A stretch of DNA of 32,000 nucleotides, taken from positions 90,001 to 122,000 of IMG/VR virus record IMGVR_UViG_3300015608_001846; one strand, 5' to 3'. The stretch comes from a virus. The notes beneath the pieces were generated by a model that was not told where the DNA came from, searched no databases, and saw nothing but the letters and a program-made list of their open reading frames with translations. Every line of letters starts with the position of its first letter. Positions within the stretch are counted from its first letter, which is position 1. Below are positions 1-31,359 of the stretch, piece after piece. The position numbers and the translations under genes are program-made.

Positions 1-1354
1 GCTCCCAAGCTGGGAAACAGCCACGCGTCAAGGCCATGGCGACGCTGCTAGCGTGCGCCTCGGTCGCCAGACACTTGTAGATCTCTTCTGTCGTTACGAT
101 CGATTCATCAGAACCGTAACGTAGGCCCAACGCAGCCAGGGCATCGCCCAAGGCAGTGATGCCCGTACCGGTGCGCCGGCCAGTTCTACACGCAGTTTCG
201 ATCTTTCTCCATAGCGTCAATTCGCGTTGGCGTTCACTGATTGGTTCCGGATCGTCGTTCTCGATCTTTTTGATGATTCGATCGATCGCTTCTAGCTCGA
301 GGTCGACCAGGTCGTCCATCAGGCGCTGAGCCTTACGAACATGAACTCGAAACAACTCGAAGTCAAATGAGGCTGTGGGCAGGAATGCATCCCTCACGTA
401 GGAAAAAACGTTGATCAGCAACAGGCGACACGAGTCGTTTGCGCTAAGAGGCAACTCTGAACAAGGGTTGGTGCAGACCGTCTTGAAGCCCTTTTCAGAG
501 AATTCATCTGCCATCGATAGCGATAGGACGTTATCCCAAAACAGCACACCGGGTTCAGCTGACTGCCAGGCTGCGTGCATCATCTGTTGCCACAGTTGAC
601 GTGCCTTGATCGTCTTTGTGACGACTGCGTCGGTCGGTGTCGATTCACAAGGCCAACGCAAAACAAAGTCAGCATCGTTCTCAACCGCCTGCATGAACTC
701 ATCAGTGACACGTACTGATACGTTGGCACCAGTCACCCGCTTGAGATCGAGCTTGGCATTGATAAACGTCTCGACGTCAGGATGTCTGACGTCGATCGTT
801 TCCATCAATGCACCCCGGCGGCCGCCTTGAGCGACCTCACGTGTGGTGTTGGAGTAGCGATCCATGAAAATGAGGACGCCGTCTGACGTCGCTGCTGCAT
901 TCTTGACTGGAATCCCCGCTGGCCGGATGTTGCTGAGGTCGATCCCAACCCCGCCGCGGCGCTTTTGGATCTGCAGGATCTCTTCGTCTGCACGAGCAAT
1001 CGATCCGTACGAATCGAGCGGTGGTTCAATGACAAAACAGTTCGACAGCGATTGAACCTTGGTGTGGTTACCGATCGCAGACATCGGAGAACCCTGTGGG
1101 ACTAGGTAGCGAAAACGATCGAGCAACGCAAAGATCTCGTCCTCTGTCATGCACTCAGCGTCTGGGTACCGAGCCTCGATGCGAGCAAATTCACGTGCCA
1201 AGCGTCGATGCATCTCGGTGGGCGTCATCTCCAGCACCCGCCCATCGGCATCTTTTAACGCATACTTGCTGACGAAGACGTCAGCTGCCAGTTCATCACC
1301 ATCAAAATAAAACGTAGAGGCACGCTTGGCCTCCACGTAGGTTTGATCCTTCAT
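1..1354 (-). CDS. Ribonucleotide reductase catalytic (alpha) subunit, N-terminal ~451 aa; the gene runs off the left edge
   Basis: My own minus-strand translation from ATG 1354-1352 (GGAGAAA 9 nt upstream) stays open to nt 1. It reads MKDQTYVEAKRASTFYFDGDELAADVFVSKYALKDADGRVLEMTPTEMHRRLAREFA... RNR hallmarks are KRRGGVGIDLSNIRPAG, AQGGRRGALM and the active-site loop TVCTNPCSELPL. There is no ATP-cone. Class I versus class II (NrdJ) cannot be decided from this fragment. The ORF is missing from the ORF track because it has no stop inside the window. Confidence 0.85.
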   Translation of the reverse strand, partial: MKDQTYVEAKRASTFYFDGDELAADVFVSKYALKDADGRVLEMTPTEMHRRLAREFARIEARYPDAECMTEDEIFALLDRFRYLVPQGSPMSAIGNHTKVQSLSNCFVIEPPLDSYGSIARADEEILQIQKRRGGVGIDLSNIRPAGIPVKNAAATSDGVLIFMDRYSNTTREVAQGGRRGALMETIDVRHPDVETFINAKLDLKRVTGANVSVRVTDEFMQAVENDADFVLRWPCESTPTDAVVTKTIKARQLWQQMMHAAWQSAEPGVLFWDNVLSLSMADEFSEKGFKTVCTNPCSELPLSANDSCRLLLINVFSYVRDAFLPTASFDFELFRVHVRKAQRLMDDLVDLELEAIDRIIKKIENDDPEPISERQRELTLWRKIETACRTGRRTGTGITALGDALAALGLRYGSDESIVTTEEIYKCLATEAHASSVAMALTRGCFPAWE

Positions 1355-1429
1355 CCTAGCGGTTTCTCCATTCACGATGACCTCTGGGTGTGCGGTGTTG
1401 GGACCCGACGCAGTCCAGACGTCTGATAC

Positions 1430-2713
1430 CTATTCCTTCGAGTCCTGCATGCCCTCTTCGACAGCTGACGCAGATGAAACCGGTTGCTGTGAAAATGCAG
1501 GGTCATTTTTCAGTTCGTTCCACTTATTGAGCAAGGCACGTTTATACGCACGCTCATCAGTTGCAGTGGCTTCTTGCAACGATCCTTCTTTGCCTGTGAT
1601 GGTGAACTGCGAACGAGCAGTATCGATCTTGACTGGGTACACGATGCCGTCTCTACCTGCGCGGTTTTTGGCTATGTACAGCCTTCCCCACCCTGTCGAT
1701 TTTTCATGGGCCTTTCGAGAGACGCTCAGGACCACATCTGCGACCATTGCCTTGCCGTAGGCTTCACTCATGTTACCTAGGTCGACGATGTCAGAGTTCG
1801 AACCCTCCTTGTTCGACTGTGACGCAGTCCAGATCGGTAATTGCTTTTCACCCGCAAAGCCTCGCAGCTCTTCATAGATCAGCTTGAGCTCGTGGCGGAG
1901 TGAATCATACTGGCGGGTCGACCTCATGATGTCCGCGTAATCGATGATGATCAGTCCGGGTCGAAACCCCTTCAGCTCCAGGCGCTCGATGTGACTACGA
2001 ATCGTGTAGATCGTTGCCGTGTTTGTCGGAAAGTACTTGATCTTGAGGTGACCCAGCTTCATCGCTGCATACTTTTCCTTGATGTCTTTTTCTTTGTCAA
2101 TGACGTCATTCGAGTCAATCTCACACAGGTTTGAATCGTAACGGATTCCAACCTGGGTCTCTGACAGCTCAAACGTATAGTGCAACACGTCGATGTTGTT
2201 TCTTAACGCATTGGCACCCAACATCGTCAAGAAGTGACTGTTGTGTGACAACACGTTATCTGCGAAATATGAGTGTGCAATCGACACCTGCATGTCACAA
2301 AGACGCTCAACCTCGTCGATCAATTGTACCTCTTCAACCCTACGAATACCATCACGTGTAATGATCAGATCACCACGTGTAAGATCGCCCGTCTTTGTCC
2401 AAACAGACGAACTGCCGACCTTGCACAATACAATATGCTCAGGAGAGCATTGAAGGTATGGAATGCAGTCCTCGAGGACACCGATGCGTGTTGTTCGATG
2501 GAATACTCTCAACTGTCGTTCGGGCTTCGTCCAACGAAAACCTTCAATGGGATAGAATCCATCTAACGACAAAACCTCAACGCTCCATGTATTCGGGATG
2601 AAGCTGTCTCCTGATTCATCGGTCTGGTGCGCTTGCTGCGGGAAGTCGATCGCATCAAACAAATCGCCCAACCTGATCGTTTCCTGTACTTCACTGAATT
2701 CGATCGAAAGCAT
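1430..2713 (-). CDS. Replicative DNA helicase (T4 gp41/DnaB-like), C-terminal fragment: HINT/intein domain (2713-2240) followed by the C-extein (2239-1433)
   Basis: This is track ORF 1430..2749. The best start is ATG 2713, with AGGA 6 nt upstream. The first 158 aa look like a mini-intein: MLSIEFSEV..., block B CSPEH, block F CDMQVSIAHSYFA, block G VLSHN. Next comes the +1 Ser and the helicase core HFLTMLGANALRNNIDVLHYTFELSETQVG, Walker B LIIIDYADIM, SQSNKEG and KNRAGRDG. By eye this aligns to T4 gp41 immediately after its GKS P-loop. Confidence 0.85.
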   Translation of the reverse strand: MLSIEFSEVQETIRLGDLFDAIDFPQQAHQTDESGDSFIPNTWSVEVLSLDGFYPIEGFRWTKPERQLRVFHRTTRIGVLEDCIPYLQCSPEHIVLCKVGSSSVWTKTGDLTRGDLIITRDGIRRVEEVQLIDEVERLCDMQVSIAHSYFADNVLSHNSHFLTMLGANALRNNIDVLHYTFELSETQVGIRYDSNLCEIDSNDVIDKEKDIKEKYAAMKLGHLKIKYFPTNTATIYTIRSHIERLELKGFRPGLIIIDYADIMRSTRQYDSLRHELKLIYEELRGFAGEKQLPIWTASQSNKEGSNSDIVDLGNMSEAYGKAMVADVVLSVSRKAHEKSTGWGRLYIAKNRAGRDGIVYPVKIDTARSQFTITGKEGSLQEATATDERAYKRALLNKWNELKNDPAFSQQPVSSASAVEEGMQDSKE

Positions 2714-3732
2714 TCTTGATCCTCGATTTCTGCGAATCTTTGCCTGCACGCCACTCGCATTCCCATACCACCACGACGCAGTAACCCTCGTTCAACAGAA
2801 ACTTTAATTTCCGCGAGTTGCGATCTAAGATCTTTGAGACGTTACACCCATAGAGAGGATGCACATCTTCAGGATGCCAGTCCATGCAGTCGTGCGCGTG
2901 CCACATGCACCCGAAATGCTCGACTATAGTCTTTGTAACATCATCGAGCACATCAACATTCCAACGCTTCAATCCTACGTTGAACCTTGCATGCTTAGCA
3001 AACGACGCAACGAACTCTGCTATTTCCTTCTCGGGGATTGATCGCTGCGTTGGATGACGCAAGTGATGAGCGTTTGCGATCTTCTCAAGCGCTTTATCAG
3101 TGTGGTGTTTGCCGAACATCGGATGTTTTTTGCCCGTGCGACCGTAACAAGGCGTTAACATCGTAGCCTCTTCTATGGTCACTCCGGCACGCCGAGCGAT
3201 CGATACCAACGACATCGGATTACGATCGCTTGTGTTATTTGCGCTCCGGAGCGCACGAGTGGCATCGTTGTTGCCTTTTAATGACTGTTCTCGTTGAAAT
3301 TCTGCAATCTTTTTAATGGCCTCTTGTACGTTGTAACCTTTTCTTGTCCAATGCTTGATCTCTGAGGGGAAAGAACGCTTCTCAATGAATGCAGCGTGAT
3401 TGTTAGGATCGTTGAACCACAAGCGTGTTCGCTGTGCAGACTCAAGACGTTGTTTTTCTGACATTTGCTGCACTGCATGCCCTGGGAACATCTCTCGGTA
3501 ATCACGCATCACCATCGCATGCGTACGAGTAATGTGAGAGATCAAAGATCCCATCGATTCACGTTTGCATAGTTGGCATTGAAGTGGTTTCAACGAGTTC
3601 GTCTGTTTCGACGATGTCTCGAGCGTAGATGATGCCTCGTTTGGTGTTGATGCGTTCCCAGGGTTTGTAGCGTCGACCGTTAATGGTGATACACGTGTAT
3701 TTGACATGCACATAAGTATCACGATGTGAACA
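2240..3732 (-). mobile_element. Intervening element in the helicase Walker-A codons: intein coding sequence interrupted by a free-standing homing endonuclease gene ('fractured gene' arrangement)
   Basis: The N-extein ends GVGK (Lys codon 3735-3733). It is followed by Cys 3732-3730. The intein ends HN (Asn 2242-2240) and the C-extein begins with Ser 2239-2237. The three ORFs in this span use three different reading frames. Confidence 0.8.
2691..3722 (-). CDS. Free-standing homing endonuclease: C2H2 zinc finger + NUMOD3-like motif + Vsr-like (very-short-patch-repair type) nuclease domain
   Basis: Motifs are CQLCKRESMGSLISHITRTH (C2H2-like) and GKKHPMFGKHHTDKALEKI (NUMOD3-like). The C-terminal WNVDVLDD...IVEHFGCMWHAHDC...YCVVVVWECEW resembles the Vsr GCFWHGH and WE motifs. 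The true start is probably downstream of the track start, for example TTG 3593, five codons before the zinc finger. The reason is that 3594-3722 shows the genome-typical C-ending codons (atc, acc, aac, tac, gac, gtc) only in the helicase frame. Confidence 0.75.
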   Translation of the reverse strand: MILMCMSNTRVSPLTVDATNPGNASTPNEASSTLETSSKQTNSLKPLQCQLCKRESMGSLISHITRTHAMVMRDYREMFPGHAVQQMSEKQRLESAQRTRLWFNDPNNHAAFIEKRSFPSEIKHWTRKGYNVQEAIKKIAEFQREQSLKGNNDATRALRSANNTSDRNPMSLVSIARRAGVTIEEATMLTPCYGRTGKKHPMFGKHHTDKALEKIANAHHLRHPTQRSIPEKEIAEFVASFAKHARFNVGLKRWNVDVLDDVTKTIVEHFGCMWHAHDCMDWHPEDVHPLYGCNVSKILDRNSRKLKFLLNEGYCVVVVWECEWRAGKDSQKSRIKNAFDRIQ

Positions 3733-4365
3733 TTTCCCTACGCCGGTCGGTGCCACGATGCACCCGATCTCACCCGCTCCGAGCCCACCGTTCAAGATCT
3801 CTTTCTTGTCGAGCTCGGGTATGCCGGTCGATATCGCGTTGCGGGTTTGTCTCATGAACCTCGAATCGATGTCGTTGATGAAATCGTGGCCTAGAGAAGG
3901 GGTCGTCCCGACGCAGACAGCCTTCTTGATACCCTCAACGATCTCTTCATAACGTTCAGCTTGGATCTGATCGACGGCCGTCTCGAGCGCTTGCTTCAGT
4001 GCCTGCTTACGACAGAAATCGAGTGACTTCTCCTTGACGTAAGGAAGGTCGCCCGGGTCTGGGTTGGTTCGAACTCGCGTCAAGTAGTCCACAACTTGTT
4101 CACGAAGGATGACATCGGTGCCGACCTTCAGTTCGTCACGGACAATCGTGACGAGCATCTGCAACGACGGAAAGACCTTGTACGATCGCGAGTAGTTGAA
4201 GTAACGATCAGCGAGGAACACCAGGTACTTGAGGTCAAGGTACTCAACCTTGAAGACCTCCATCATCTGCTCGGCCCACACACGATCCATCAACAAGGCC
4301 TGGACAACCTTTTCCTGAAAGGCCTTTCCGTAGGAGTTAAACGACGCTTGCGTATTTTCGTTCAT
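3559..4365 (-). CDS. Replicative DNA helicase (T4 gp41/DnaB-like), N-terminal fragment (211 aa) ending inside Walker A, plus a 57-aa Cys-initiated tail
   Basis: The extein ends ...ELDKKEILNGGLGAGEIGCIVAPTGVGK. The tail is CSHRDTYVHVKYTCITINGRRYKPWERINTKRGIIYARDIVETDELVETTSMPTMQT, followed by a stop. The start of the tail, C-x3-D-T-x-V, resembles intein block A. The start ATG 4365 overlaps the FEN stop as ATGA. Confidence 0.85.
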   Translation of the reverse strand: MNENTQASFNSYGKAFQEKVVQALLMDRVWAEQMMEVFKVEYLDLKYLVFLADRYFNYSRSYKVFPSLQMLVTIVRDELKVGTDVILREQVVDYLTRVRTNPDPGDLPYVKEKSLDFCRKQALKQALETAVDQIQAERYEEIVEGIKKAVCVGTTPSLGHDFINDIDSRFMRQTRNAISTGIPELDKKEILNGGLGAGEIGCIVAPTGVGKCSHRDTYVHVKYTCITINGRRYKPWERINTKRGIIYARDIVETDELVETTSMPTMQT

Positions 4366-5339
4366 TTTCCTTCGACTCGCTTTTGTAGGCCATCGATGCA
4401 GTTGAACACGTAGAAAAAGCCCTCAATGTCAAAATCTCCGATACCTTCGGCCACTAACAGACGAACGAGCTTCACCCTATCAACCGTTGGTACAAAGGTT
4501 TTGATGACATGATCAACCGATGACATTTGTGTGGCTGATAACATGCTACCGTCGAGGTAAACCAGGCGCCAGTTACGTCTAACATCGGCCTCGTTTTCAA
4601 CGATCCTCTTAAAGACAGCTGACTCGTCTTCGTGAGAGGCTGCATAATCGAGCACGTCTTGCAAGATGATGTTGTTTTCGGTGCCCAAGAACGGAAACAA
4701 ACGAGCGATGGTCTTGAATCCTACTCCTTTGATCCCAGGAACGTTGTCACCGCGATCGCCACACAGCGTCTTGGCTAGCGCAAAGTTTTGTGCACGGACT
4801 CGAAAATCTTCAAGAACATTTTCTTCAAGGATGTACGTCTTCTTGTGAAGACTGTAGAGGCGCGTCTTGGGTCCCAACAACTGGTAGAGATCCTTATCAG
4901 ATGACACAATGATCTTATCTTCATCTTTTAGCGGCCCAGTGCACAGGTAAGCGACCAGGTCATCGCCTTCACAATCCGCCACATAGAGTTGACACACCGG
5001 GATGCACTTCAACATGCCCAACAGGGTCACCAACTGGTGCTTTCGATTTTCTTCTGTGTCTGGGATGTCATCTTCGTAGAAACGATTCAGTTTTTCAGGA
5101 CGGCGGCCCATCTTGTAGTCAGCATAGATCTTGCGGCGGCGAGATGAACCGCCTCCCTCCCAAGCAACGTAGATCGCCTTGGGTTGGATCTCATTGACCA
5201 ATTTGCGCAACGACTTCAAGAAACCGATGCAGCCACCCATCTGATAGCCGTGAGCTGACATCGTTGGGAATGCGGCCCACGACCTGATAAAAGCGTTCAT
5301 CCCATCAACAATGAGAACTGGCCGATCACTCGAATCCAT
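4362..5339 (-). CDS. 5'-3' exonuclease / flap endonuclease (T4 RNase H / T5 D15 / Pol I N-terminal domain family)
   Basis: Motifs are LIVDGMNAFIRSW, WEGGGSSRRRKIYADYK, ADCEGDDLVAY, VSSDKDLYQLL and GDRGDNVPGIKGVGFKTIA (helix-3-turn-helix). ATG 5339 (MDSSDRPVLIVDG) is preferred over the longer GTG 5363 start in the track. Confidence 0.85.
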   Translation of the reverse strand: MDSSDRPVLIVDGMNAFIRSWAAFPTMSAHGYQMGGCIGFLKSLRKLVNEIQPKAIYVAWEGGGSSRRRKIYADYKMGRRPEKLNRFYEDDIPDTEENRKHQLVTLLGMLKCIPVCQLYVADCEGDDLVAYLCTGPLKDEDKIIVSSDKDLYQLLGPKTRLYSLHKKTYILEENVLEDFRVRAQNFALAKTLCGDRGDNVPGIKGVGFKTIARLFPFLGTENNIILQDVLDYAASHEDESAVFKRIVENEADVRRNWRLVYLDGSMLSATQMSSVDHVIKTFVPTVDRVKLVRLLVAEGIGDFDIEGFFYVFNCIDGLQKRVEGK

Positions 5340-5411
5340 GGCAACGACAATAACCCAACACACAACTTAGTTCAGGTCGACCAAACCCGTTACGGGAGCT
5401 TAATTAGCTAC

Positions 5412-6194
5412 ATGAACGAATCCTTGTTGAGAAGATACATTGCAGCGCTGGTTCTAGAACGGATCCGCTCGAACAAGGGAAAGTTTGGACAGGACACCAA
5501 GTTCAACCTGAAAACCTTCAAATCGTTAGAGAGGGTCGAAGCGATGCGTGATTATGCTGACACCTTTTTGAAACAATTGGGAAAAGGTTCATCACGAGTC
5601 GCATACCTGTTGAGTTCGAAGTACGTGTTAAAGATCGCCCTTAACGAAGCGGGCATCGCTCAAAACAAGGCCGAAGTCGATGTCTACACCAGTCCGAAGA
5701 CAAGGCCATTCGTGGCTACAGTCCACGCTTCACACGATCGCTATGCTTGGGTCGTCGAGGACCTGGTCAAGGAACTAACCAGTGAAAAAGAGTTTGAATC
5801 ACTGACGGGAATCAGCTGGCGTCAGTTTCACTCAGCGATCAACCTCCCATGGGACACGTTTACGTCAGACCCTCAGGGCAAGAAAGACGACAAGATAGCA
5901 GCGACACACCAACACATCAAGAATGGCAAAGGTAAGCAGTTTTTGCATGCTGTGGCACAAACAGCATCTGCGCTGCACTTGGGCATCGGCGACATTCAAC
6001 GACTCGAGCACTGGGGTAAGACGCCCGATGGACGGGCGGTGCTGCTTGATTTTGGTTACACGGCCGAGGTTTGGCAAAAGCACTACTCGACAGGCTCCCA
6101 AAAGAAGACCAGCACCTCCCATTCCGATCACGATAAACCAACTGTTCGTCCTGGACAGGACGACTCAACAGCTCCCGCTAAACCACAACGCTAG
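5412..6194 (+). CDS. Protein-kinase-like fold protein (putative), opposite strand to all neighbours
   Basis: Kinase-like elements are LGKGSSRVAY (Gly-rich loop), YVLKIA (VAIK-like Lys), NKAEVDVY (alphaC Glu) and IGDIQRLEHWG...AVLLDFGY (catalytic-loop-like Asp plus DFG). The C-terminus is disordered and Ser/Thr/Pro-rich. The N-terminus MNESLLRRYIAALVLERI carries the motif shared with five other ORFs. The assignment was made by eye only. Confidence 0.5.
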   Translation: MNESLLRRYIAALVLERIRSNKGKFGQDTKFNLKTFKSLERVEAMRDYADTFLKQLGKGSSRVAYLLSSKYVLKIALNEAGIAQNKAEVDVYTSPKTRPFVATVHASHDRYAWVVEDLVKELTSEKEFESLTGISWRQFHSAINLPWDTFTSDPQGKKDDKIAATHQHIKNGKGKQFLHAVAQTASALHLGIGDIQRLEHWGKTPDGRAVLLDFGYTAEVWQKHYSTGSQKKTSTSHSDHDKPTVRPGQDDSTAPAKPQR

Positions 6195-6637
6195 CGACCG
6201 GTTGAGCTGTAACCCCCAGAGCCACGACACGTTGATGGGATGATATCGACGTCTTCGAATCTAACACGCACAGCTGGTGCGAACACCAGCTGTGCGATCC
6301 GATCGCCAATGTTGACTTCAAAATCGACGGTCGACGTGTTGTGCAAGGCTATGCCAAGTTCACCGCGGTAATCAGAATCGATGGTACCAGGCGAATTGAT
6401 GACAGTGATCCCATGCTTCACTGCTAGACCTGATCGTGGGCGGACCTGACACTCGAACCCATCAGGGATCACCATGACCAACCCTGTTCGGAACAGCTTG
6501 ATGCCGCGCGCAGGGACGATGCCAGCTTCGTTTGCGTAAACGTCACAGGCCGCGGCGCCTGCTGTCGCATAGACAGGAACAGCGCCACCAGCCAACCTGT
6601 GAACACCTATGACGACGTCAGTTGTCGGCAAGCTCAT
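6191..6637 (-). CDS. dut: dUTP pyrophosphatase (trimeric dUTPase)
   Basis: Motifs are ATAGAAACDVYA, VRPRSGLAVKHG, GTIDSDYRGELGIAL, GDRIAQLVF and RGSGGYSSTG. I prefer the internal start MSLPTTDVV (ATG 6637) to the 6703 start in the track. The stop overlaps the convergent kinase-like gene stop as CTAG. Confidence 0.9.
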   Translation of the reverse strand: MSLPTTDVVIGVHRLAGGAVPVYATAGAAACDVYANEAGIVPARGIKLFRTGLVMVIPDGFECQVRPRSGLAVKHGITVINSPGTIDSDYRGELGIALHNTSTVDFEVNIGDRIAQLVFAPAVRVRFEDVDIIPSTCRGSGGYSSTGR

Positions 6638-8764: not shown

Positions 8765-8786
8765 GTTTCCTCTTTCCTTTGATGTG

Positions 8787-8818
8787 CCAAGACGCAGTCA
8801 GTATTGTCTACGTCTTGG
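8787..8818 (-). promoter_or_regulatory. 8-bp-stem hairpin in the SSB leader (ccaagacg / cgtcttgg, 16-nt loop)
   Basis: The arms 8787-8794 and 8811-8818 are perfect complements. The hairpin lies 22 nt upstream of the SSB ATG and is followed by an A-rich stretch cacatcaaaggaaagaggaaac. There is no U-tract, so it is not an intrinsic terminator. Confidence 0.4.
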
Positions 8819-8878
8819 TACCTTACCGCTTTGTTGTCTACAAGTTCAACCCACGAATGCGAGTTGAAAGCCTTTAAA

Positions 8879-9124: not shown

Positions 9125-9180
9125 GGTCTTAAGTATGGCGCATACGGTCTATTTGAGCCCTTAGATCAGATCAAATTGCC

Positions 9181-9774: not shown

Positions 9775-9811
9775 GTCTTCACCATACTGCTAAAAAACGT
9801 ATCTTTTGTCA

Positions 9812-11032: not shown

Positions 11033-11074
11033 AGTACGTACAGATCTTAGCCTACGCGTGTAGCAGTTTACACA

Positions 11075-11113
11075 TCACTTCTTTGACTGTGTATCGATCT
11101 CTTGTACTGATTT
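11075..11113. repeat. Direct repeat copy A (39 bp), downstream boundary of the HEG cassette
   Basis: The plus-strand sequence is tcacttctttgactgTgtatcgatctcttgtactgaTtt. It matches 11887-11925 at 37 of 39 positions. Confidence 0.9.
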
Positions 11114-11890
11114 GTGCCTTCGTCGCGGCGCTGACAAGATCCCTAGTTCAACGAGCCTCTCACGGTTCCATAGTTCAGAGTTCTTGTATTTTTCATGGAA
11201 CCATTCCCACTTTTCCTTTCCGACGTGACCACCTTTTCGTTCAAAAGTTCCCTTGATCTCAATGTACGTGTCTGCAAATGTACCGTCCAAGACGTAAAGA
11301 TCAACGTAGTACGTTCGTCCTTGAGGCGTCTGGAACGCTAGTTGCCATCGAAAATCGATCTGATTCGTGTTTAACCAATCCACGACGGCTAGTTCATAGC
11401 CACCAACGCAATGAATGTCTTCGCCAGACTTCCAATGTTTTACGACCGTGCAAAACCGGCTAGCAGCGATTCCATTTAATCTTCCTCGAGCTGGATGTCC
11501 GCTGTATCCATTTAAGACGGTGTACGGCATCGCTACAAATTCACCATGATCTTTGTCAAGAAATCTCATCTTTACGTGTGAATTCACATAACACTGTCCG
11601 GGTGACAATGTTACATTGTCACCGTGATGAAGGGTTAATTTTTGCTCGATCTCTTCTGGCGTTAAGAGAGAACGTTTCCAATTAACATGCTTGTGACCCG
11701 TGTGTCGGCGACCGTTGCACACAGATTTGACCTGAGCATGCCATACGCCATACGTTTTATCGATAAACCGCGCACGTTTATTCGCTGAAATATACGACGA
11801 TTCGTCAATCGTAACAGTGTCACCGTGTACTTGTCTAAGCCTAGACTTGATCTCTTCGATCGAAATTTTTCTTGACACAAAGATTGTCAC
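11075..11890 (-). CDS. Free-standing homing endonuclease-like protein: two N-terminal HGD-type DNA-binding repeats + PD-(D/E)XK nuclease core
   Basis: The repeats are IEEIKSRLRQVHGDTVTIDESSYISANKRARFIDKTYGVWHAQV and PEEIEQKLTLHHGDNVTLSPGQCYVNSHVKMRFLDKDHGEFVAMP. The C-terminal core has GYELAVVDWL ... YYVDLYV ... TYIEIKG (E ... D ... ExK). The GTG start overlaps the upstream stop. The last 12 codons duplicate the end of the upstream structural gene. Confidence 0.65.
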   Translation of the reverse strand: MTIFVSRKISIEEIKSRLRQVHGDTVTIDESSYISANKRARFIDKTYGVWHAQVKSVCNGRRHTGHKHVNWKRSLLTPEEIEQKLTLHHGDNVTLSPGQCYVNSHVKMRFLDKDHGEFVAMPYTVLNGYSGHPARGRLNGIAASRFCTVVKHWKSGEDIHCVGGYELAVVDWLNTNQIDFRWQLAFQTPQGRTYYVDLYVLDGTFADTYIEIKGTFERKGGHVGKEKWEWFHEKYKNSELWNRERLVELGILSAPRRRHKSVQEIDTQSKK

Positions 11891-11925
11891 TTCTTTGACT
11901 GCGTATCGATCTCTTGTACTGACTT
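11887..11925. repeat. Direct repeat copy B (39 bp) = 3' end of the 993-aa structural gene
   Basis: The plus-strand sequence is tcacttctttgactgCgtatcgatctcttgtactgaCtt. Both copies encode KSVQEIDTQSKK followed by a stop. The repeat period is 812 bp. Confidence 0.9.
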
Positions 11926-14868
11926 CAGTTGTTGCTTGATGTACTCGACGACCGTAGGAGCCCCTTCGAACCTACCGTATGCATCGTAGAACGACAATGT
12001 CATTTGAGATTCGAACTTTCCAGGTGTGATAGAATGAGTCAATCCAGTAAGAATGTAGATGTTATCAATCGTCGTCCCCGTGTTGAAGTCAATGAAGAAC
12101 ATCTGACCGTTGTTCAACAACGGACAACCCAAGGCGTTGATCGTCAACGCTGCTGGGATGACACGTAGCGGCAACCCGCCCACACCGGAACCATTGGGCA
12201 TGGCAACCGATGGCTTGCCTGACTTGCGTGACACCGTCTGCATCTGGACGACGCTAAGCAGGGGGTCTTGCTTGGAGGCCAGGTTGGCTGACGTCACCAC
12301 AGTACCATTCATGCCGTAGACGATCGTCGGCACCATCCTTGACACGTATTCCTTGATGTCCGGATTGCTGATGATCCTACCTGGCACCCCCGTCTCTGTC
12401 TGAGACGACTGCGTCCGATCGATCCTTCCGTCTGGGGACAGAGACGGAAGGAGCTCTTTCCACACATCGACCGCCTGTGCCTTGTCGCTGGACCGTTGCT
12501 TGAGATAGTCTTTGGTGATGCCCAGTGTTTCAGCATCGATGAACTCTGGGCCCGATTCGGCATCCCCGCGCAGGATCTGTCCTGGCAACTTGTACGGGTT
12601 GTTCGTCTTGTCAAAGACGTGGATTCGCATGATCTTACGATAGTTGCCGGCGATGTCCTCATTGGGCGCTGGGTTCAGCGTAAACTGCTCGAACTGTTGC
12701 GATGTCTCAAGGCGCCGCAACAGGTCGCTGTTGTTTCCCGATGATGCCCACAGCGTTTCGATGTACATTTCGACCTGCGGCATCTTGAAAGGACCTTGTG
12801 CGATGTTGATACCTGCAAGAGCGCTTTCGTAGGCCTGTTCAGCTCCCTCCTTGAACTTCTGATCGACTTTGTTGGCAGGGTCATAGGGCGCAAAGTACGA
12901 CCGAAATCCGTAACCGGGAGCGCGTGTGTCGCTGACCTGAGCATCGATGATCAGGCGAAAGAACTCCTCGATCGATAGCCTCTCAGATCCCTTCCTTTCA
13001 ACGTACTCGCGGTACTGGTCGAGGAACACCGGCATGTCGATAGGAAACTCAGCGAGGTTGGTTCCAGCAGCCGCTCCCGCGTGGTCGTTGACCTGGTAGA
13101 AGAACAGTTGCATCTCGTCGATACCACCGATTTGTTGGAACGAGTTGCCGATGAAGACAGACATCAGCTTGCCCAGCGACACCAGTTTCTTCCCAAACTC
13201 CTGACGATCTGTTTCACTACGGTAGGCATTGACGACCTCGACTAGGTTAGAGAACGGGTGAGGGGCCGCCTTCGCGTCAGTGGCTGCGACCTTGTCCTTT
13301 GCAGCAATCGGCAAAAACGGATCAGGTTCTTTGGTGACGCTGGTCAACAAACCTGAGGCCACGCGTGACGCGTCGCTACGTAATTGTGCCTTGAAGTCAA
13401 GGTTCTGCTTGTTGTCAGTCTTGTAGTACGTCTCAAGGGCGTTCAATAGTCCCTGTGCGGCATCTTTATCGATCTTACCGCCGGGCCTAGCAAAGCTCTC
13501 CTTCATCGCCTTGATCGAGTCCTGGATGTCCTTGCCCGACATGTCGGGCAGCGCACCGCGCTCTGCAGACTCAATCAACATGAACCCACGGATCTCTCGG
13601 TTGACGCCCTCAGTCGGACCGATACCCAACGCAGTCCGGTACTCGCTGATCTGTTGACCCAGTTCGCGAAGCTTCTTGATGGTGTTCAACGTGCCATCGT
13701 TTTTGTCACTCGTCCTCGCCGTTCTCATCTCAGGTATGCCTTTGGTCCACAGCTCAATGTTGAGCGTGACCTGACCGACTGGATCAAACGAGAACTGAGA
13801 ATTTACGATGCCGTAGGCCTCCCGCGTCAGCATGTTGCCATTGATGAAATCAGAATAGTTGCCCGAGCCGGCGACCTGCGCTCCAGATGGCTCAGGCGGA
13901 TGACGCCAACCATAGGTGATCCACACAGTGGGAGCTGTCTGCGCATTCTGGTAGATCTGAGGCCTGACCAGGTCGCTGATCTCAGCCATCCTTGATCTGT
14001 CATGTAGCTTCAGCGTCAACGTAGCCTTCTTGTATGAATACATTCCGACTGTCGGCGTCACAGAAACGTTGAAACTCTCGATCGACATCAGTGGCCGAAA
14101 CGGGTCTAGGACATCGACATAGCGAGCGCTGTGACTAACCTGTTGTGGATTGATGAGCGTCTGAGGAGATGTAAACATCTCCATGCCGGCCAAGGTGTGT
14201 TGTTGGCCGAAGGCCACGTCGTGTACTTCACGTGCAGCGATCATCGCAGCATCTGCTGATTTGTTATCTGCTCCCGCTGACGGATCAGAGCCCAGCAAGA
14301 ACTTCATCAGCCCAGGGGACTGAAGGTTGACAGGATCGACACGATTGAACACGAACTCGACCTCGAGGATGGGCACCATCCTCGAGGCGATCAGGCTCGG
14401 AACGTAGTTCATGAACATCTCGATGCGTTCAGCGTTCCGCGTCGCCGGGCTCAGGTAACCTGAATTGCTGAGCAGGATGCACATGGGTTTCTTGGGATCG
14501 ACGTCCTGGCCGATGATCTCTCGAAAACTGACGTTATTTATGACAGTCTTTCCGTCGTTGCCCACAGCAACGTTCTGTGATTGGCCCAACGCATTTACAC
14601 GTTTACCGGTGCTGCTATAGAAGCTGATCGTCCTCTTGAACTGCTCGAGCTTTTCAGGTGACGCATTGGACGCTAGCTCTTCAAGGCGATTTCCCAACGC
14701 ATCGACGGTCAATACGCCGCCGGGTCCGACGTTGTAAAGAGCGTCGAGCAGCTCTTTCGTAAAGTTTGTCGTCTCTATTGAACCTTGCGACAGCTTCTGC
14801 GCTCCCAACAGGTCTGCGGGAGTGATCATTCGATAGATCGATTCGAGGGTTGATACGTCGACAGCCAT
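11887..14868 (-). CDS. Large virion structural protein (993 aa), probably baseplate or hub associated
   Basis: A long uninterrupted ORF, translationally coupled (TGATG) to the LysM-like gene in the tail module. I recognise no enzymatic motif. The function is inferred from position only. Confidence 0.55.
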   Translation of the reverse strand: MAVDVSTLESIYRMITPADLLGAQKLSQGSIETTNFTKELLDALYNVGPGGVLTVDALGNRLEELASNASPEKLEQFKRTISFYSSTGKRVNALGQSQNVAVGNDGKTVINNVSFREIIGQDVDPKKPMCILLSNSGYLSPATRNAERIEMFMNYVPSLIASRMVPILEVEFVFNRVDPVNLQSPGLMKFLLGSDPSAGADNKSADAAMIAAREVHDVAFGQQHTLAGMEMFTSPQTLINPQQVSHSARYVDVLDPFRPLMSIESFNVSVTPTVGMYSYKKATLTLKLHDRSRMAEISDLVRPQIYQNAQTAPTVWITYGWRHPPEPSGAQVAGSGNYSDFINGNMLTREAYGIVNSQFSFDPVGQVTLNIELWTKGIPEMRTARTSDKNDGTLNTIKKLRELGQQISEYRTALGIGPTEGVNREIRGFMLIESAERGALPDMSGKDIQDSIKAMKESFARPGGKIDKDAAQGLLNALETYYKTDNKQNLDFKAQLRSDASRVASGLLTSVTKEPDPFLPIAAKDKVAATDAKAAPHPFSNLVEVVNAYRSETDRQEFGKKLVSLGKLMSVFIGNSFQQIGGIDEMQLFFYQVNDHAGAAAGTNLAEFPIDMPVFLDQYREYVERKGSERLSIEEFFRLIIDAQVSDTRAPGYGFRSYFAPYDPANKVDQKFKEGAEQAYESALAGINIAQGPFKMPQVEMYIETLWASSGNNSDLLRRLETSQQFEQFTLNPAPNEDIAGNYRKIMRIHVFDKTNNPYKLPGQILRGDAESGPEFIDAETLGITKDYLKQRSSDKAQAVDVWKELLPSLSPDGRIDRTQSSQTETGVPGRIISNPDIKEYVSRMVPTIVYGMNGTVVTSANLASKQDPLLSVVQMQTVSRKSGKPSVAMPNGSGVGGLPLRVIPAALTINALGCPLLNNGQMFFIDFNTGTTIDNIYILTGLTHSITPGKFESQMTLSFYDAYGRFEGAPTVVEYIKQQLKSVQEIDTQSKK

Positions 14869-18540: not shown

Positions 18541-18557
18541 ACGAATCGTACCTTACA

Positions 18558-26769: not shown

Positions 26770-28116
26770 CTATCTCAGTCCCAGGACTAAATTTCCACAG
26801 CCAAAGATCATTTCAACTCCTGCTTCATCTGCAACTTGTTGCTGCGTCAGCCCTCTTGAAGGATCAGCCTTGTAACGAAAGCGATCGTAGCGGTGGACGC
26901 TGTCGGTCCACCAGAACCTAGGCGCAGTCTCGCGTAGGACCTCAAACCCCGCAGCGAGGTAGCCCTTGCCTGAACCGATCCTACGATCAACGTACGTCAT
27001 CAATCCCAAGGCGCCAGACGCCTTGGCCCAGGCAAGGGCACGACGAGATAACCTTGACAGTGAACCTGGGACGTTGCCGGCTGTCGCAAAGCGTGAGACC
27101 TCATAGTGATCAGCGTTGCCCCTGTGAAAGGGACGACGCAACGACATTGCAGCAAGGATTTTACCCTCGTGGACGAGGCCCCAAGCGACGGTCGCCCGTG
27201 TGTCACCATCGATGTGATGGTCGTCAAAGAACTGCCTCCTGGCAGCGGGTGTCAGCTGCTCGACCTTGCACTGTCGGGCTCCCACCAGCTTGGGCTCCTG
27301 ACCCAAACGGTGCTTGATCATCCTTTCAACGATCGCCCGCTTGTCGCGCCACTCGTCCTCAAACACACGCAGGACATCGATCCCAGCGGCGTCACAGGCC
27401 CGCTGCTTATCAACAGTTCGCTTGGGCACCGCGCGAGGGCCACTGTGCCAGTACAGGCCGTCATACTCCACGGCAAATTTTCTGGAGGGGACGTAAACGT
27501 CGAGTTCCTTCGGAGCGATCACGGTGCGATCTGACAGCACCGCGTCGGGAGCCAACGACCTGACGAAGTCATAGATTTCGGACTGGGCGTTCAAGGCTGA
27601 ACCCAGGTCGAACGACGTCGGACCTGTGACCCGCGAGTCCATGCGCGAGCTGGGGTCTCGGATCGTGGTTGTCACAGTGGACCTTTGCGGACCTGTCGCG
27701 TGCAGGCACGCGACCGGCGGAGACGGCGACTCAACGAGCGTGGGCGCGGCTGACACGACGTCTCCGGTGCGCGTGTTTTTTAAGCCTGCGTTCCACGCCT
27801 TGATCCTTCCTGTCTTGAAGCCGTCGAGGCGCTTCTGGACAAAGCCCCTCTGCCGTTCAGGATCCTTGTAGACACTGTCGACGTTGGCATTGTGACCACG
27901 GATGAACCTCGAGACGTACCCCTTCTTCCAACCGGCCCAGGCGACTGCGCCGCCACAACCACATGCACAAACGGGCGCGGACGCTGAGCGCACGGTTCTG
28001 AGGTACAGCCCCTCGTCGGCCTCGCTTCCGTGTTCGTGCATGTGATGATGCAGGAACCGCAGTTCCTGTCCAAAGTCGCGATCACAATTGGGACACTTGA
28101 TACGAATGAATGCCAC
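26770..28116 (-). CDS. Free-standing homing endonuclease (C2H2 zinc finger + Cys-rich/NUMOD-like region + Vsr/DUF559-like PD-(D/E)XK core + conserved C-terminal domain)
   Basis: Motifs are CPNCDRDFGQELRFLHHHMHEH, CACGCGGAVAWAGWKKGY..RGHNANV, AWNAGL, and the nuclease core ELDVYVPSRKFAVEYDGLYWH...VFEDEW. The C-terminal ~190 aa (HIDGD, SRLSRR, MTYVDRRIGSGKGYLAAGF, PRFWWTD) are clearly paralogous to 29629-31359. Confidence 0.8.
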   Translation of the reverse strand: MAFIRIKCPNCDRDFGQELRFLHHHMHEHGSEADEGLYLRTVRSASAPVCACGCGGAVAWAGWKKGYVSRFIRGHNANVDSVYKDPERQRGFVQKRLDGFKTGRIKAWNAGLKNTRTGDVVSAAPTLVESPSPPVACLHATGPQRSTVTTTIRDPSSRMDSRVTGPTSFDLGSALNAQSEIYDFVRSLAPDAVLSDRTVIAPKELDVYVPSRKFAVEYDGLYWHSGPRAVPKRTVDKQRACDAAGIDVLRVFEDEWRDKRAIVERMIKHRLGQEPKLVGARQCKVEQLTPAARRQFFDDHHIDGDTRATVAWGLVHEGKILAAMSLRRPFHRGNADHYEVSRFATAGNVPGSLSRLSRRALAWAKASGALGLMTYVDRRIGSGKGYLAAGFEVLRETAPRFWWTDSVHRYDRFRYKADPSRGLTQQQVADEAGVEMIFGCGNLVLGLR

Positions 28117-28994
28117 AAGAGTTATATTACTACCTGGATCAATTTAGATTGGTGATGGGAAAGAAATTTGATTTTGTTGCGATGGACGTCGACTGGGGTG
28201 AATTCACCGCAGACTACGTCTCTGTTTACTGTTACGTCGACACGACGCTCGATGATAACACACCTGTGTACGTTGGGTTGGGTTCTGGTCCTCGCATCAG
28301 GCACAAGCGTGCAAGAAATCAGAAACACCTGAACATTGCACTGAAGCACAGGATCAAGAGGACAGTCGTCGCCTCGTACTCCAAGGACGCTAAGCAGCTA
28401 GCGTGCGACAACGAGAAGAGGCTGATCGCTGAGCTAGGGACGTTCAGCACTCGCACGAACAAGGGCTGCAACTTCACCCTGGGAGGCGATGGGACCGCTG
28501 GGCACATCATCTCAGAAGAAGAAAAGGAACGTCGGCGCGCGCGACAGACGGGCGACGGTAACGTCGCAAAACGTCCGGATGTTCGAAGAAAGATCAGCGA
28601 ATCACAACGCGGGAAGAAATTCTCAAAAGAGAGACGACAAAATATCTCAGAGGCAAAGAAAGGAAAAGCAATGCCTGATGAAACACGTCAAAAGATCAGC
28701 AAGTCAATGTCTGCGACGATGTCAAGGAATCATGCCCAGCGCAACGCCCACCTGGTCCCATTGCACCAAGAGATCATCAGGTTGCGTAATTCAGGGTTAA
28801 GCATCATCGATGTCATGACTCAGGTTTCAGCAATGTTCAAAAGAGAGGTCAAGTACTCCAGCGTTACAAACACGGTCCACGTTCACAAAAAAGGACAGTG
28901 TCAGACGTGTAACAACAACCCAATAGAAGTTGATCGATCCAGAGCACAACAAACGACACAAGCATCCGATCAGTTAACTGATTTGAATGCTTGA
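28110..28994 (+). CDS. GIY-YIG family homing endonuclease with NUMOD3-like repeats (Seg / I-TevI-like)
   Basis: The region VSVYCYVD...TPVYVGLGSGPRIRHK...NEKRLIAELG is GIY-YIG-like. Repeats are RRKISESQRGKKFSKERRQNISEAKKGKAMPDETRQKISKSMS. The start may be ATG 28155 (MGKKFDF) rather than 28110. The gene is visibly more A/T-rich than the flanking tail genes. Confidence 0.7.
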   Translation: MPQELYYYLDQFRLVMGKKFDFVAMDVDWGEFTADYVSVYCYVDTTLDDNTPVYVGLGSGPRIRHKRARNQKHLNIALKHRIKRTVVASYSKDAKQLACDNEKRLIAELGTFSTRTNKGCNFTLGGDGTAGHIISEEEKERRRARQTGDGNVAKRPDVRRKISESQRGKKFSKERRQNISEAKKGKAMPDETRQKISKSMSATMSRNHAQRNAHLVPLHQEIIRLRNSGLSIIDVMTQVSAMFKREVKYSSVTNTVHVHKKGQCQTCNNNPIEVDRSRAQQTTQASDQLTDLNA

Positions 28995-29017
28995 ACGTTC
29001 CAAGTTATTGTTTTTGT

Positions 29018-29628: not shown

Positions 29629-31359
29629 ATGGGTGCCGTTAAAGGTAAGAAGCTCGAGACACTAACGTGTCCGATTTGCCACATTTTTTCGTCGAAGCGC
29701 TTGACCAACTTTGAGGATCATCTAGCGCTCGAACACCACACGACAGCAAGAATATTATGGAACTCATTGAACAACGGACCTATTCTTTGTGGCTGCGGTT
29801 GCGGCAATGAAGCGCCCTTCCACGGCTGGAAGCACGGTTACGGCAAGTTCATCATCGGTCACAATGCAAATGTCTACAGCTCGTATGCACCCGAACGGGC
29901 AGCAGAACTGATCAAACAACGAAGTGAATCCCTTGCAGGAAAGACGGGATGGGCAAAGGGTCTGACCAAGGAATCTGACGACAGGATCGCAAAACGAGCG
30001 AAAGCAACATCCGAAGGTCGACGACGAGCATTCATCGATGGAGATATCGTCGCCTGGAATAAAGGTCTGACCAAGGACAATGATCCCAGGGTCGCAGCAG
30101 CCGCCGTAGCTCAACAACAGCGATTCGAGGCTAAAGACGTTCGACCTTGGGCTGAAGGCAAGACTGAAGCGGGTGATGAATGCATTCTTCGAAAAAACAA
30201 TGCACTTCGAAAAAGGTACGCCAAAGGAGAGCTTGAACCTTGGTACAAGGGAAAGACGATCGCGTCTGAACCTCGATTAGAAAAACTCTGGCAACACCGT
30301 GATCCTGTCAAAGAGTATGCTGGTATCCGATGGACGGATGATGAGATCAGGGGAAAACTTGCAGGGAACATGCAACTCATCCTGCAAGACATCGACGGTT
30401 ACAGAAATGATCGGATCCCGGCGCTGGTTGTCATGTGCAGGACGTGCAGTGAAACATCGAAGGTTTCACTTGTCTTTGCAAGAAACGATCGCTGCCATCG
30501 ATGTAACCCTACGAGCTCGGCCGGTCAGAATCAGATCGCTGATTGGTTGGAATCACTGGGACTCAAGGTCGGTCGCAATGTCAAGGGCATCATCGGAAAT
30601 CGTCAAGAGCTTGACGTATACGTTCCTTCGCACAAGCTAGCGATCGAATTCAATGGACTCTATTGGCACAATGAAGCAGGTGGTAAGGGACCCAAGTACC
30701 ATCAAAATAAGTCGAATCGGTGCGCTGAACTCGGGATCACACTGCAACATGTCTTCGAAGACGAATGGTATGAACGACCTGACATCGTCAAATCGATGAT
30801 CATGCATCGACTGTCAATGACACCCAAGCGTACTTCTGCTCGTAAGTGCAATCTTCGTGAGGCAACGATCGATGAACGTCGAACGTTCTTCGAAGCAAAT
30901 CACATTGATGGTGATGTGCCTTCAACGAAGGCATGGTGCCTCGTCGACGAAGAAGAGATCGTAGCGTGTATCTCGATACGAAAACCGTTTCACAAATCAC
31001 AAAGCAAATTGATCGAAATCGCTAGGTTTTCGACCAAAACGTACACTTCTTGCGCCGGCGCCCTAAGCAGATTGATGCGATGTGTGGTTGCATACACTCT
31101 AGAACACAAGCTCGCGGGAGTGATGACGTACGTTGACACACGCTTCGGTAATCGAGGAAAAGGTTACTGTAGCGCAGGTATGACATTCACAAAAGAAACA
31201 GAACCTAGGTTCTGGTGGACAGACAACCACCATCGATTCAATCGATTCAAGTTTCGAGCCGACAGAGGGAGGCAGATGTCAGAAGCTCAGGTCGCAGAAG
31301 CTGCTGACGTCGTCAAGATCTGGGGTTGCAAGAATCTTGTGTACCAAATCAACGTCTGA
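29629..31359 (+). CDS. Free-standing homing endonuclease, paralogue of 26770-28116, with four tandem NUMOD-like W-x-K/E-G-x-T modules
   Basis: Motifs are CPICHIFSSKRLTNFEDHLALEHH and CGCGCGNEAPFHGWKHGY..IGHNANV. The repeats are GWAKGLTKESD, AWNKGLTKDND, PWAEGKTE and PWYKGKT. The nuclease core is ELDVYVPSHKLAIEFNGLYWH...VFEDEW. The C-terminal domain has HIDGD, SRLMRC, MTYVDTRFGNRGKGYCSAGM and PRFWWTD. Confidence 0.8.
   Translation: MGAVKGKKLETLTCPICHIFSSKRLTNFEDHLALEHHTTARILWNSLNNGPILCGCGCGNEAPFHGWKHGYGKFIIGHNANVYSSYAPERAAELIKQRSESLAGKTGWAKGLTKESDDRIAKRAKATSEGRRRAFIDGDIVAWNKGLTKDNDPRVAAAAVAQQQRFEAKDVRPWAEGKTEAGDECILRKNNALRKRYAKGELEPWYKGKTIASEPRLEKLWQHRDPVKEYAGIRWTDDEIRGKLAGNMQLILQDIDGYRNDRIPALVVMCRTCSETSKVSLVFARNDRCHRCNPTSSAGQNQIADWLESLGLKVGRNVKGIIGNRQELDVYVPSHKLAIEFNGLYWHNEAGGKGPKYHQNKSNRCAELGITLQHVFEDEWYERPDIVKSMIMHRLSMTPKRTSARKCNLREATIDERRTFFEANHIDGDVPSTKAWCLVDEEEIVACISIRKPFHKSQSKLIEIARFSTKTYTSCAGALSRLMRCVVAYTLEHKLAGVMTYVDTRFGNRGKGYCSAGMTFTKETEPRFWWTDNHHRFNRFKFRADRGRQMSEAQVAEAADVVKIWGCKNLVYQINV

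Follow-up and report, generated by a model that had tools for sequence, protein, structure and literature searches.

Fractured genes, described by Dassa, London, Stoddard, Schueler-Furman and Pietrokovski (2009, Nucleic Acids Research 37:2560; PMC2677866), are phage DNA-replication genes, gp41-type helicases among them, laid out as host gene, N-terminal split-intein fragment (IntN), free-standing endonuclease gene, C-terminal intein fragment (IntC) and host gene. The P-loop of the DnaB helicase is known as a hotspot for inteins (insertion point 'b'; Novikova et al. 2016, PMC4760082), the natural atypically split inteins characterized to date have an IntN of 15–37 amino acids (aa) (PMC13014065), and Vsr-like homing endonucleases of the EDxHD family have been described with I-Bth0305I (Taylor et al. 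2011, PMC3239194). Here, we analysed a stretch of 32,000 nt (positions 90,001 to 122,000 of IMG/VR record IMGVR_UViG_3300015608_001846), hereafter the window, in which the replicative helicase gene of an uncultured jumbo phage is very probably a fractured gene of this type: a class-1 intein is inserted in the P-loop, a Vsr-like endonuclease cassette lies inside the intein, and the helicase is predicted to be restored by protein trans-splicing. An earlier sequence-only reading of the window had proposed a fractured gene and pointed to the 2009 study for gp41 hosts and Vsr-like inserts, both of which are indeed reported there. Our results support that proposal with three corrections, namely an atypical split site, an altered endonuclease copy and relatives that show every stage of the process. 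It had mentioned neither the break near the intein N-terminus ahead of block B, nor the overlap of the endonuclease ORF with both intein fragments, nor the lost family start codon, nor the Asn at a catalytic Asp position.

The locus comprised three minus-strand open reading frames (ORFs) in three different frames (N0/H1/C2). The first (4365..3559; 268 aa) encodes the helicase N-half and IntN, the last (2749..1430; 439 aa from the first GTG, 427 aa from the ATG at 2713) encodes IntC and the helicase C-half, and the endonuclease ORF (3722..2691; 343 codons between its mechanical limits) sits between the two halves. The N-extein (3733..4365; 211 aa) is a gp41/DnaB-like N-terminal half (phrog_19, E=8.6e-16) that ends with the Walker A sequence ...CIVAPTGVGK, whilst the C-extein (1430..2239; 269 aa, stop codon 1432–1430) is a DnaB_C domain (PF03796, E=6.5e-14; phrog_19, E=1.3e-42). 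The intein Cys codon (3732–3730) directly follows GVGK, and the intein ends ...ADNVLSHN (Asn at 2242–2240) ahead of Ser+1 (2239–2237), which begins the C-extein, continues HFLTMLGANALRNN and completes Walker A (GK|S). The N-half covered positions 158–366 of the PHROG DnaB-like profile phrog_19 and the C-half positions 369–599. When ligated in silico, the 480-aa product (211 + 269) could be aligned gap-free to an uninterrupted 481-aa helicase (P0109), with 75 % identity across 465 residues that include the APTGVGK|SH junction, and both exteins were 50–78 % identical to uninterrupted helicases, again gap-free. With the intein removed, the protein has the DnaB C-terminal ATPase domain and restored Walker A motif of a superfamily 4 (SF4) replicative helicase. 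The ORF coordinates and sequence statements of the sequence-only reading were all borne out when rechecked, including the interruption of the P-loop between Lys and Ser, the extein sizes, the position of the endonuclease ORF in a third frame, and an AGGA-N6-ATG ahead of the downstream half. The last corresponds to a Shine-Dalgarno-like GAGGA (2724–2720) inside the endonuclease ORF, 6 nt ahead of the IntC ATG (2713–2711), and public gene callers start the C-half at the same ATG (P0001, 427 aa, 100 % identical). The exact C-half protein was present on 18 contigs (ENA, JGI and Logan; different samples), the longest of 322,887 bp, and those that reach the upstream region keep the identical three-ORF arrangement. 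Clustering at 90 % identity showed the C-half architecture to be common to ~100 protein clusters.

Pfam searches with single sequences were weak (N-half unmatched; Intein_splicing E=0.074; Vsr E=0.033), and family membership was therefore set by family profiles and structure models. A profile of 33 intein family members matched the solved inteins gp41-1 (E=2.4e-9), VidaL (9e-9) and NrdJ-1 (1e-7). An AlphaFold2 (AF2) model of the fused IntN (47 aa) and IntC (158 aa) had a mean predicted local distance difference test score (pLDDT) of 94.8 and a predicted template modelling score of 0.87, with the sole dip in confidence (pLDDT 67) at residues 41–50, the junction. All 32 top matches of this model in a Foldseek search of the PDB were inteins, with VidaL the best (6VGV; E=6.6e-8, TM 0.80 on target) and a probability of 1.0 to VidaL, RadA, GyrA, RecA, gp41-1 and other inteins. 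VidaL comes from a T4-like helicase of a Lake Vida metagenome. Hedgehog/intein (HINT) blocks, which the sequence-only reading had left to profile searches, are hence present by both profile and structure. The IntN core (3592..3732) spans 47 codons and comprises Cys1, block A CSHRDTYVHVKY and a conserved ~35-aa beta-rich insert ending ...INGRRYKPWERINTKRGIIYARDIVETDELV. It is followed in the window by a tail (3559..3591) of 10 codons (ETTSMPTMQT) and the stop TGA (3561–3559). IntC (2240..2713; 158 codons) carries helix alpha1 (LGDLFDA), block B (CSPEH), block F (RLCDMQVSIAHSYF) and block G (VLSHN). Cys1 was present in 17/17 IntN fragments, and the block B His, block F Asp, terminal His-Asn and penultimate Ser were invariant in the 33 aligned members (H140, D187, H204 and N205 in model numbering; SPEH, RLCDMQV and SHN|S in the window). 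A first-residue nucleophile, blocks B, F and G, a +1 Ser and the HINT horseshoe fold are all in place, and the element is a genuine class-1 intein, one that is atypically split.

The position of the break is what sets this intein apart from the canonical arrangement. Block B was found in the downstream ORF and not in the upstream one, and comparison with contiguous relatives (P0050, P0062, P0026 and P0070; ~203–210-aa inteins), which read uninterrupted through CS.R..YVHVKY...ARDVIESDNF-VIEH...LGDLF, placed the break ~47 residues into the intein, ahead of block B. In the AF2 model IntN forms strands at residues 7–17 (long), 20–22, 27–30 and 33–36, and IntC opens with a partner strand at 51–61, then helix alpha1 at 62–68. 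In P0101, a contiguous relative with a shorter intein (163 aa), a tight turn (RTGD) stands in place of the ~35-aa insert and the break of the window family, which puts the endonuclease cassette at the tip of the first beta-hairpin. The gap in P0101 was probably shifted in the MAFFT alignment (A2), and CVDPRECVSIRY was taken by inspection as the equivalent of block A CSHRDTYVHVKY. A break near the N-terminus with blocks B, F and G all held by IntC is that of an atypically split intein; the IntN, at 47 aa and 57 aa with the tail in the window copy, nevertheless lies outside the 15–37 aa of short IntN fragments, and the division of 47 (+10)/158 aa lies outside the canonical fractured-gene split (IntN 88–105 aa, IntC 33–54 aa). 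IntN was exactly 47 codons long at 17 loci, where variability by codon position ran 0.57 at position 3, 0.40 at position 1 and 0.28 at position 2, and amino-acid identity was 0.49 in the intein frame versus 0.31 and 0.29 in the other frames. By these measures, IntN is a real coding region in the helicase frame that is under purifying selection. Net charge was +2 to +7 for IntN residues 1–38 and −6 to −10 for the first 50 residues of IntC; charge complementarity between fragments has been described for split inteins (PMC2677866). A stop directly followed IntN codon 47 in 23/25 relatives with a 47-codon IntN. The window reads GAA at that position, which is why its IntN continues into the tail.

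Relatives of the locus formed an unusually complete series of alleles. The 120 best helicase matches included 99 ORFs consisting of IntC and C-extein (~390–470 aa), five with a contiguous P-loop intein and 10 that were intein-less (471–482 aa), with four more carrying a second intein. Approximately 24 IMG/VR loci shared the order N-extein, IntN with a stop after codon 47, endonuclease, Met-IntC ((K)ML[ST]IE) and C-extein in the same frame order, whilst more distant fractured loci had other IntN lengths (27–59 aa) and other frames. In one clean pair, 3 nt of a contiguous allele (L084) were replaced by a 1,130-nt cassette in a fractured one (L085), and identity of the flanking DNA rose from 82–83 % to 92–95 % within 120 nt of the junction. 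The endonuclease-free intein site of the L084 type reads ...GAATCAGATGGGTTTACAATAGAACAC..., and this presence/absence pair may be taken as indirect support for homing. Decay of the endonuclease was also evident, as internal deletions (L093, L089), a ~50-codon remnant (L091), the last 28 codons only (L087) or a 54-nt spacer in its place (L088, L094). In L087 and L088 the endonuclease is lost and the helicase is still two ORFs with intact exteins; retention of the split under these circumstances implies that the halves are rejoined or otherwise functional, most simply by trans-splicing. The series from intein-less through contiguous, fractured and decaying-endonuclease alleles to an endonuclease-less split matches the gene-breaking model of Dassa et al., in which context the ~203-aa contiguous inteins with the insert could be either the original target or re-fused products. 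An exhaustive IntC profile search returned 1,612 cluster representatives at E<=1e-3, and 93 of the best 150 (P0226–P0370 search) looked like ORFs of long IntC and C-extein, defined as having the intein's C-terminal end no later than residue 165, with >=100 residues of host protein after it. Ten of the ORFs from this search were sampled for Pfam domains, of which five were large terminases and five had no host-protein domain, and the presence of terminases connects the window family with the TerL atypical inteins already known. ORFs beginning with a long IntC look common in metagenomes, in a count that may include truncated gene calls at contig ends. Separately, four helicases (P0021, P0091, P0094 and P0097) had a second, contiguous intein (CFHGDT...VKN|SQSN) at WTA|SQSNKEG, which in the 764-aa relatives includes an HNH_3 endonuclease domain; one helicase can hold a split and a contiguous intein at once.

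The middle ORF contained a NUMOD3 motif (PF07460, E=5.7e-6) above the curated Pfam cut-off. Its 105 database relatives carried Pfam NUMOD3, ROS_MUCR (PF05443) or C2H2 (PF13894), and the Vsr-clan domains MTES_1575, DUF559 and Vsr (PF18741, PF04480, PF03852). A profile of 21 members matched E. coli Vsr (1CW0, E=6e-11), I-Bth0305I (3R3P, E=1e-3) and, weakly, Ros (2JSP, E=0.047). The AF2 model comprised a zinc finger (residues 47–78), helical modules (89–240) and a confident nuclease domain (246–342), with residues 1–41 unstructured (pLDDT <50), and the best Foldseek matches were again Vsr 1CW0 and the I-Bth0305I catalytic domain 3R3P (TM 0.77). Profile, Pfam clan, AF2 and Foldseek results thus agree on the Vsr-type label that had been given to the ORF from sequence. 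On the minus strand, the Ros/MucR-type zinc finger maps to 3489..3584 (C49, C52, H63 and H68, the Cys/His being kept in 91–100 of 105 relatives), the predicted NUMOD3 DNA-binding motif to 3075..3140 (residues 195–216) and the Vsr-like nuclease domain of the EDxHD family to 2694..2987. In the latter, D257 (Vsr D51), E268, W274 and H275 (Vsr H69) were present and invariant across the family.

The window copy departs from its family in both active site and start codon. Two of the five EDxHD signature residues are replaced, by Cys at position 272 (Asp in 95/105 relatives) and Asn at position 302 (Asp in 100/105); the endonuclease is a Vsr-like/EDxHD family member by fold, without these two residues. 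Asn302 aligned gap-free with Vsr D97 and I-Bth0305I D222, the latter being the residue changed in the catalytically inactive D222N variant of I-Bth0305I (PMC3239194), and Asn at this position was confined to the subgroup of the window (P0121–P0124; four clusters at 43–54 % identity). In L085 the IntN codons GAT GAA (Asp45-Glu46) provide the ATG of the endonuclease, and the cassette starts straight after it. The window codons are GAC GAA, so the family ATG position reads ACG (3602–3600), and the other in-frame ATGs that relatives have in the same stretch likewise read ACG. The most likely translation start is TTG 3593–3591, which retains the CxxC of the zinc finger. An alternative ATG at 3554–3552, 5 nt past the N-half stop, is the choice of gene callers (P0121, 287 aa) and removes the CxxC, and far-upstream starts at ATG 3713/3707 are unlikely. 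A start at GTG 3722 or ATG 3713, with a long overlap, was rejected given that codon-position statistics favour the intein frame, that most relatives have stops in the endonuclease frame over the first ~17 codons and that residues 1–41 have the low pLDDT noted above.

Endonuclease activity in the window lineage consequently looks doubtful, and an alternative to one part of our explanation, the active homing endonuclease, has to be weighed. The enzyme may be nuclease-dead or attenuated and retained for DNA binding or regulation, or for coupling to the IntC-helicase half, in which case the fracture would be a frozen, vertically inherited state. The subgroup-specific Asn at a position where Asn inactivates I-Bth0305I speaks for this, as do the loss of the family ATG and the displaced IntN stop, the location of the IntC ATG and its GAGGA inside the endonuclease ORF, and the fact that decayed copies in relatives always retain the last ~28–50 endonuclease codons. 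Yet the ORF is intact, and comparison with its nearest relative (L116) gave variability of 0.55–0.65 at codon position 3 versus 0.22–0.25 at position 2 in the DNA-binding and nuclease parts alike, a pattern indicative of purifying selection on the endonuclease ORF. The residues D257, E268, W274 and H275 are retained together with all four Vsr-type zinc ligands (C272, H277, C279 and C322). Most other family members have different residues at positions 272, 277 and 322, and position 279 is variable. Furthermore, the Asn is kept in four diverged clusters and so looks like a functional variant instead of a fresh knockout. On balance, we consider loss of homing function in this lineage possible but not likely. 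A more far-reaching proposal, and one we regard as distinctly doubtful, is that the endonuclease is dead yet selected, locked in by its coupling to the IntC-helicase half and possibly reused for DNA binding, and that the 35-aa insert of IntN would be a new association module defining a distinct class of atypical split; coupling is put forward as the reason for retention because the ribosome-binding site and ATG of IntC lie inside the endonuclease ORF.

The anatomy, homologies, conservation, reproducibility across populations and presence/absence alleles observed above are compatible with the following course of expression, splicing and homing, which we infer. A class-1 intein occupies the Walker-A loop of the gp41/DnaB-type helicase between Lys and Ser, and insertion of a free-standing Vsr-like (EDxHD) cassette at the tip of its first beta-hairpin has turned one gene into three overlapping ORFs. 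These are probably expressed from a single mRNA and translationally coupled, as suggested by the overlap of the helicase start with the upstream gene (ATGA), the overlap of the endonuclease with the end of IntN, and a 23-nt overlap (2691..2713) with the start of IntC that is kept in relatives. The expected products are a 211-aa extein with the 47-aa IntN and 10-aa tail, and the 158-aa IntC with the 269-aa extein. The basic IntN would dock onto the acidic, nearly complete IntC and supply the missing first strands of the HINT fold, after which Cys1, the block B His, the block F Asp, the terminal His-Asn and Ser+1 could carry out trans-splicing to restore GVGK-S and a 480-aa helicase. The endonuclease would originally have spread the cassette by cutting endonuclease-free intein alleles.

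It is conceivable that the helicase halves instead assemble non-covalently, with the intein fragments acting as interaction domains only and ligation never taking place. There is precedent in endonuclease-split phage enzymes that work as non-covalent complexes, a resembling case being the Aeh1 NrdA split by a homing endonuclease (PMC3045599). However, binding alone would not require Cys1, the block B His, the block F Asp, His-Asn and Ser+1 to be invariant in the family, and a ~200-residue intein left within the P-loop (GK|S) would disrupt the ATP site. Splicing is also known for the homologous atypically split inteins of the VidaL and TerL types (PMC13014065). We therefore deem non-covalent assembly very improbable. 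Equally, two programmed +1 frameshifts might join the three ORFs in a single polypeptide, giving an ordinary cis-splicing maxi-intein with an internal endonuclease. The shared frame order (f, f+1, f+2) of the window and ~24 close relatives and the overlap of the endonuclease ORF with both intein fragments could be read in this way, but common descent from one insertion explains the shared order with no frameshift required, and the distant fractured relatives L031/32, L034/35 and L041 use other frame combinations. Moreover, the stop of IntN is conserved, as is the Met that opens IntC after a Shine-Dalgarno-like site, endonuclease-less relatives retain stop and restart, and neither a slippery or structured RNA element nor notable local inverted repeats were found at the two ORF junctions. 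Frameshifting is accordingly scarcely credible. Finally, artefactual frame breaks or a decaying pseudogene, for which nothing speaks beyond the general possibility of error in metagenome assemblies, can be given negligible weight, as the same layout is seen on 18 contigs that come from independent samples and assemblers and, with ORFs intact, in ~100 diverged related clusters, and the exteins align gap-free to uninterrupted helicases at 50–78 % identity; the pattern is far beyond chance, assembly error is excluded as the cause of the frame breaks, and the breaks themselves are real, a point on which the sequence-only reading had made its proposal conditional.

Several observations nonetheless weigh against a trans-spliced fractured gene with a homing endonuclease as we propose it. 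The ligated helicase is a predicted product, and the 10-aa non-conserved tail that IntN has gained from the lost stop could lower splicing efficiency. The 47-aa IntN is longer than any characterized atypical IntN (15–37 aa), and we know of no biochemical precedent for its extra beta insert. The endonuclease lacks the ancestral ATG and has Asn at the D222-equivalent position. With respect to expression, a promoter scan between the ORFs gave one promoter-like site versus 4.0 expected, a terminator scan gave three terminator-like sites versus 4.3 expected, and predicted RNA structure was not significant at either the endonuclease start (z=−1.4) or the IntC start (z=+0.6). The hairpin that Dassa et al. 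describe upstream of the endonuclease was not found at this locus. Since no promoter, terminator or hairpin signal beyond chance was found, the expression model draws solely on the gene overlaps.

The helicase lies in a replication/recombination module of the window that also encodes a 5'-3' exonuclease, a dUTPase, RecA/UvsX-like and gp32-like proteins, an HD protein and a family-A polymerase, and the window further encodes a T4-type baseplate protein. The helicase N-half begins at an ATG (4365–4363) that overlaps, as ATGA (4365–4362), with the stop codon of the 5'-3' exonuclease gene upstream, and a ribonucleotide reductase (RNR) gene follows the C-half. A megablast search of window positions 1–12000 against GenBank phages gave no match, and tblastn found distant helicases only (<41 % identity); the phage is without a close cultured relative. 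The RNR gene is one 848-aa ORF in the window's own genome (L001) and was called as 583 + 191 aa in L005/L006. In related phages it is broken (~5075–8028 in L082/L083; 2555–4966 in L084), with an extra ORF between parts that carry Intein_splicing/PT-HINT matches. The best-looking hairpin with a T-run (1312–1338, minus strand) lies ~37 nt inside the RNR ORF (start near 1375, mapped from L001) and for this reason was not called a terminator. It is probably a chance match, the number of such matches being no higher than in shuffled sequence.

Other endonuclease-like genes were evident in the window. An HNH-like ORF (11890..11075, minus strand; 271 aa; phrog_559, E=1e-6) separates a 993-aa gene from the family-A polymerase gene, and a 39-nt direct repeat (11075–11113 and 11887–11925; 95 % identical) gives it and the 993-aa ORF the same ending, ...SVQEIDTQSKK*. 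Its appearance is that of a free-standing endonuclease whose insertion duplicated the 3' end of the gene upstream of it. This PolA region (9812–14868) was considered as the site of a second fractured gene, a reading that was rejected, as the 993-aa ORF is no part of a polymerase and the inserted HNH-like ORF is separate and free-standing. Three further homing-endonuclease-like ORFs (28116..26770, minus strand, 448 aa; 28110..28994, plus strand, 294 aa; 29629..31359, plus strand, 576 aa) matched phrog_3339/559/314 with E-values down to 6.5e-71, in a region (26770–31359) over which GC content moves between 0.61 and 0.49. Selfish nuclease genes are abundant in the genome. No Pfam or PHROG match at E<=1e-3 was obtained for two very large ORFs (1,036 and 1,633 aa; 15161–23459, minus strand) or for the 993-aa ORF (14868..11887).

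The copy in the window is intact within the replication module of a ~323-kb phage genome, and as such offers a natural test system. Its relatives provide intein-less, contiguous mini-intein, fractured, internally deleted endonuclease, endonuclease-less split and insert-bearing contiguous alleles in syntenic loci, so that the gene-breaking model becomes testable with real allele pairs, which also supply candidate homing sites. For protein engineering, the family holds IntN/IntC pairs that are natural and diverged, ~100 in number, and whose split site is unlike the canonical one. Atypically split inteins have been known since 2009–2014, and natural examples are sought after, only a handful having been characterized. 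What keeps alive an endonuclease that has Asn for Asp and is under purifying selection is a small but real question; were it true that the enzyme is dead but kept, it would be a selfish gene locked in by the host gene it broke. In sum, the locus is well suited to experiments and provides new atypical split inteins, though it is no surprise to specialists.

Compared with the fractured genes of Dassa et al. (PMC2677866), the locus shares an enzyme gene in two adjacent ORFs that each carry a split-intein part, a free-standing endonuclease gene between them, and an overlap of the endonuclease 3' end with IntC (6–69 bp there, 23 bp here). Vsr-like endonucleases with NUMOD motifs were among the inserts of that study, and endonuclease-less split alleles occur in both (their gp41-7; L087 and L088 here). 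It differs in its 47/158 break before block B, where theirs are canonically split, in that no upstream hairpin beyond chance was found (z=−1.4), and in insertion site, gp41-1 to -7 being at P-SSM2 residue 356 and gp41-8/-9 elsewhere, whereas the window intein is in the P-loop. Only their 'Terminase' locus is comparable in its split, with an IntC of 122 aa that has all N motifs except N1, and given this exception in the paper a canonical split site is typical of fractured genes and not strictly defining. With the atypically split inteins VidaL, PolB16 OarG and AceL-TerL/GOS-TerL the window intein shares a short IntN made of the first strands and a long IntC with blocks B, F and G; VidaL is its best structural match and a significant sequence match (E=9e-9), TerL inteins are its nearest non-helicase sequence relatives, in proteins that start with a long IntC, and the break falls past the first strand(s) and ahead of helix alpha1, as in the 'S1' split position of VidaL and PolB16 (PMC13014065). 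In contrast to these, its IntN is extended to 47 aa (57 in the window copy) by the conserved ~35-aa insert next to the break, and the locus retains an endonuclease between the halves.

The endonuclease resembles I-Bth0305I (PMC3239194) in its C-terminal Vsr-fold nuclease domain, its N-terminal NUMOD-type DNA-binding modules and the Asp (Vsr D51), Glu and His (Vsr H69) of the active site, but is free-standing within an intein gene where I-Bth0305I is encoded in a recA group I intron, has an added Ros/MucR-type zinc finger, and in the window copy departs from the EDxHD signature at two of its five positions, which are Cys and Asn. By insertion position the intein is akin to the DnaB P-loop inteins (PMC4760082), which likewise occupy the Walker-A loop of an SF4 helicase, so that ATP binding depends on splicing; those inteins are contiguous and in bacterial DnaB, unlike the split intein of this phage gp41-like helicase. 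These comparisons indicate that the locus resembles the fractured genes of Dassa et al. in how it works, is one of their class and is nothing new in kind, and that what is specific to it is an S1-type break combined with a P-loop insertion in a gp41-like helicase, an IntN of 47 aa that includes a conserved beta insert, a start codon supplied by the host, an Asn variant of the endonuclease and an unusually complete allele series.

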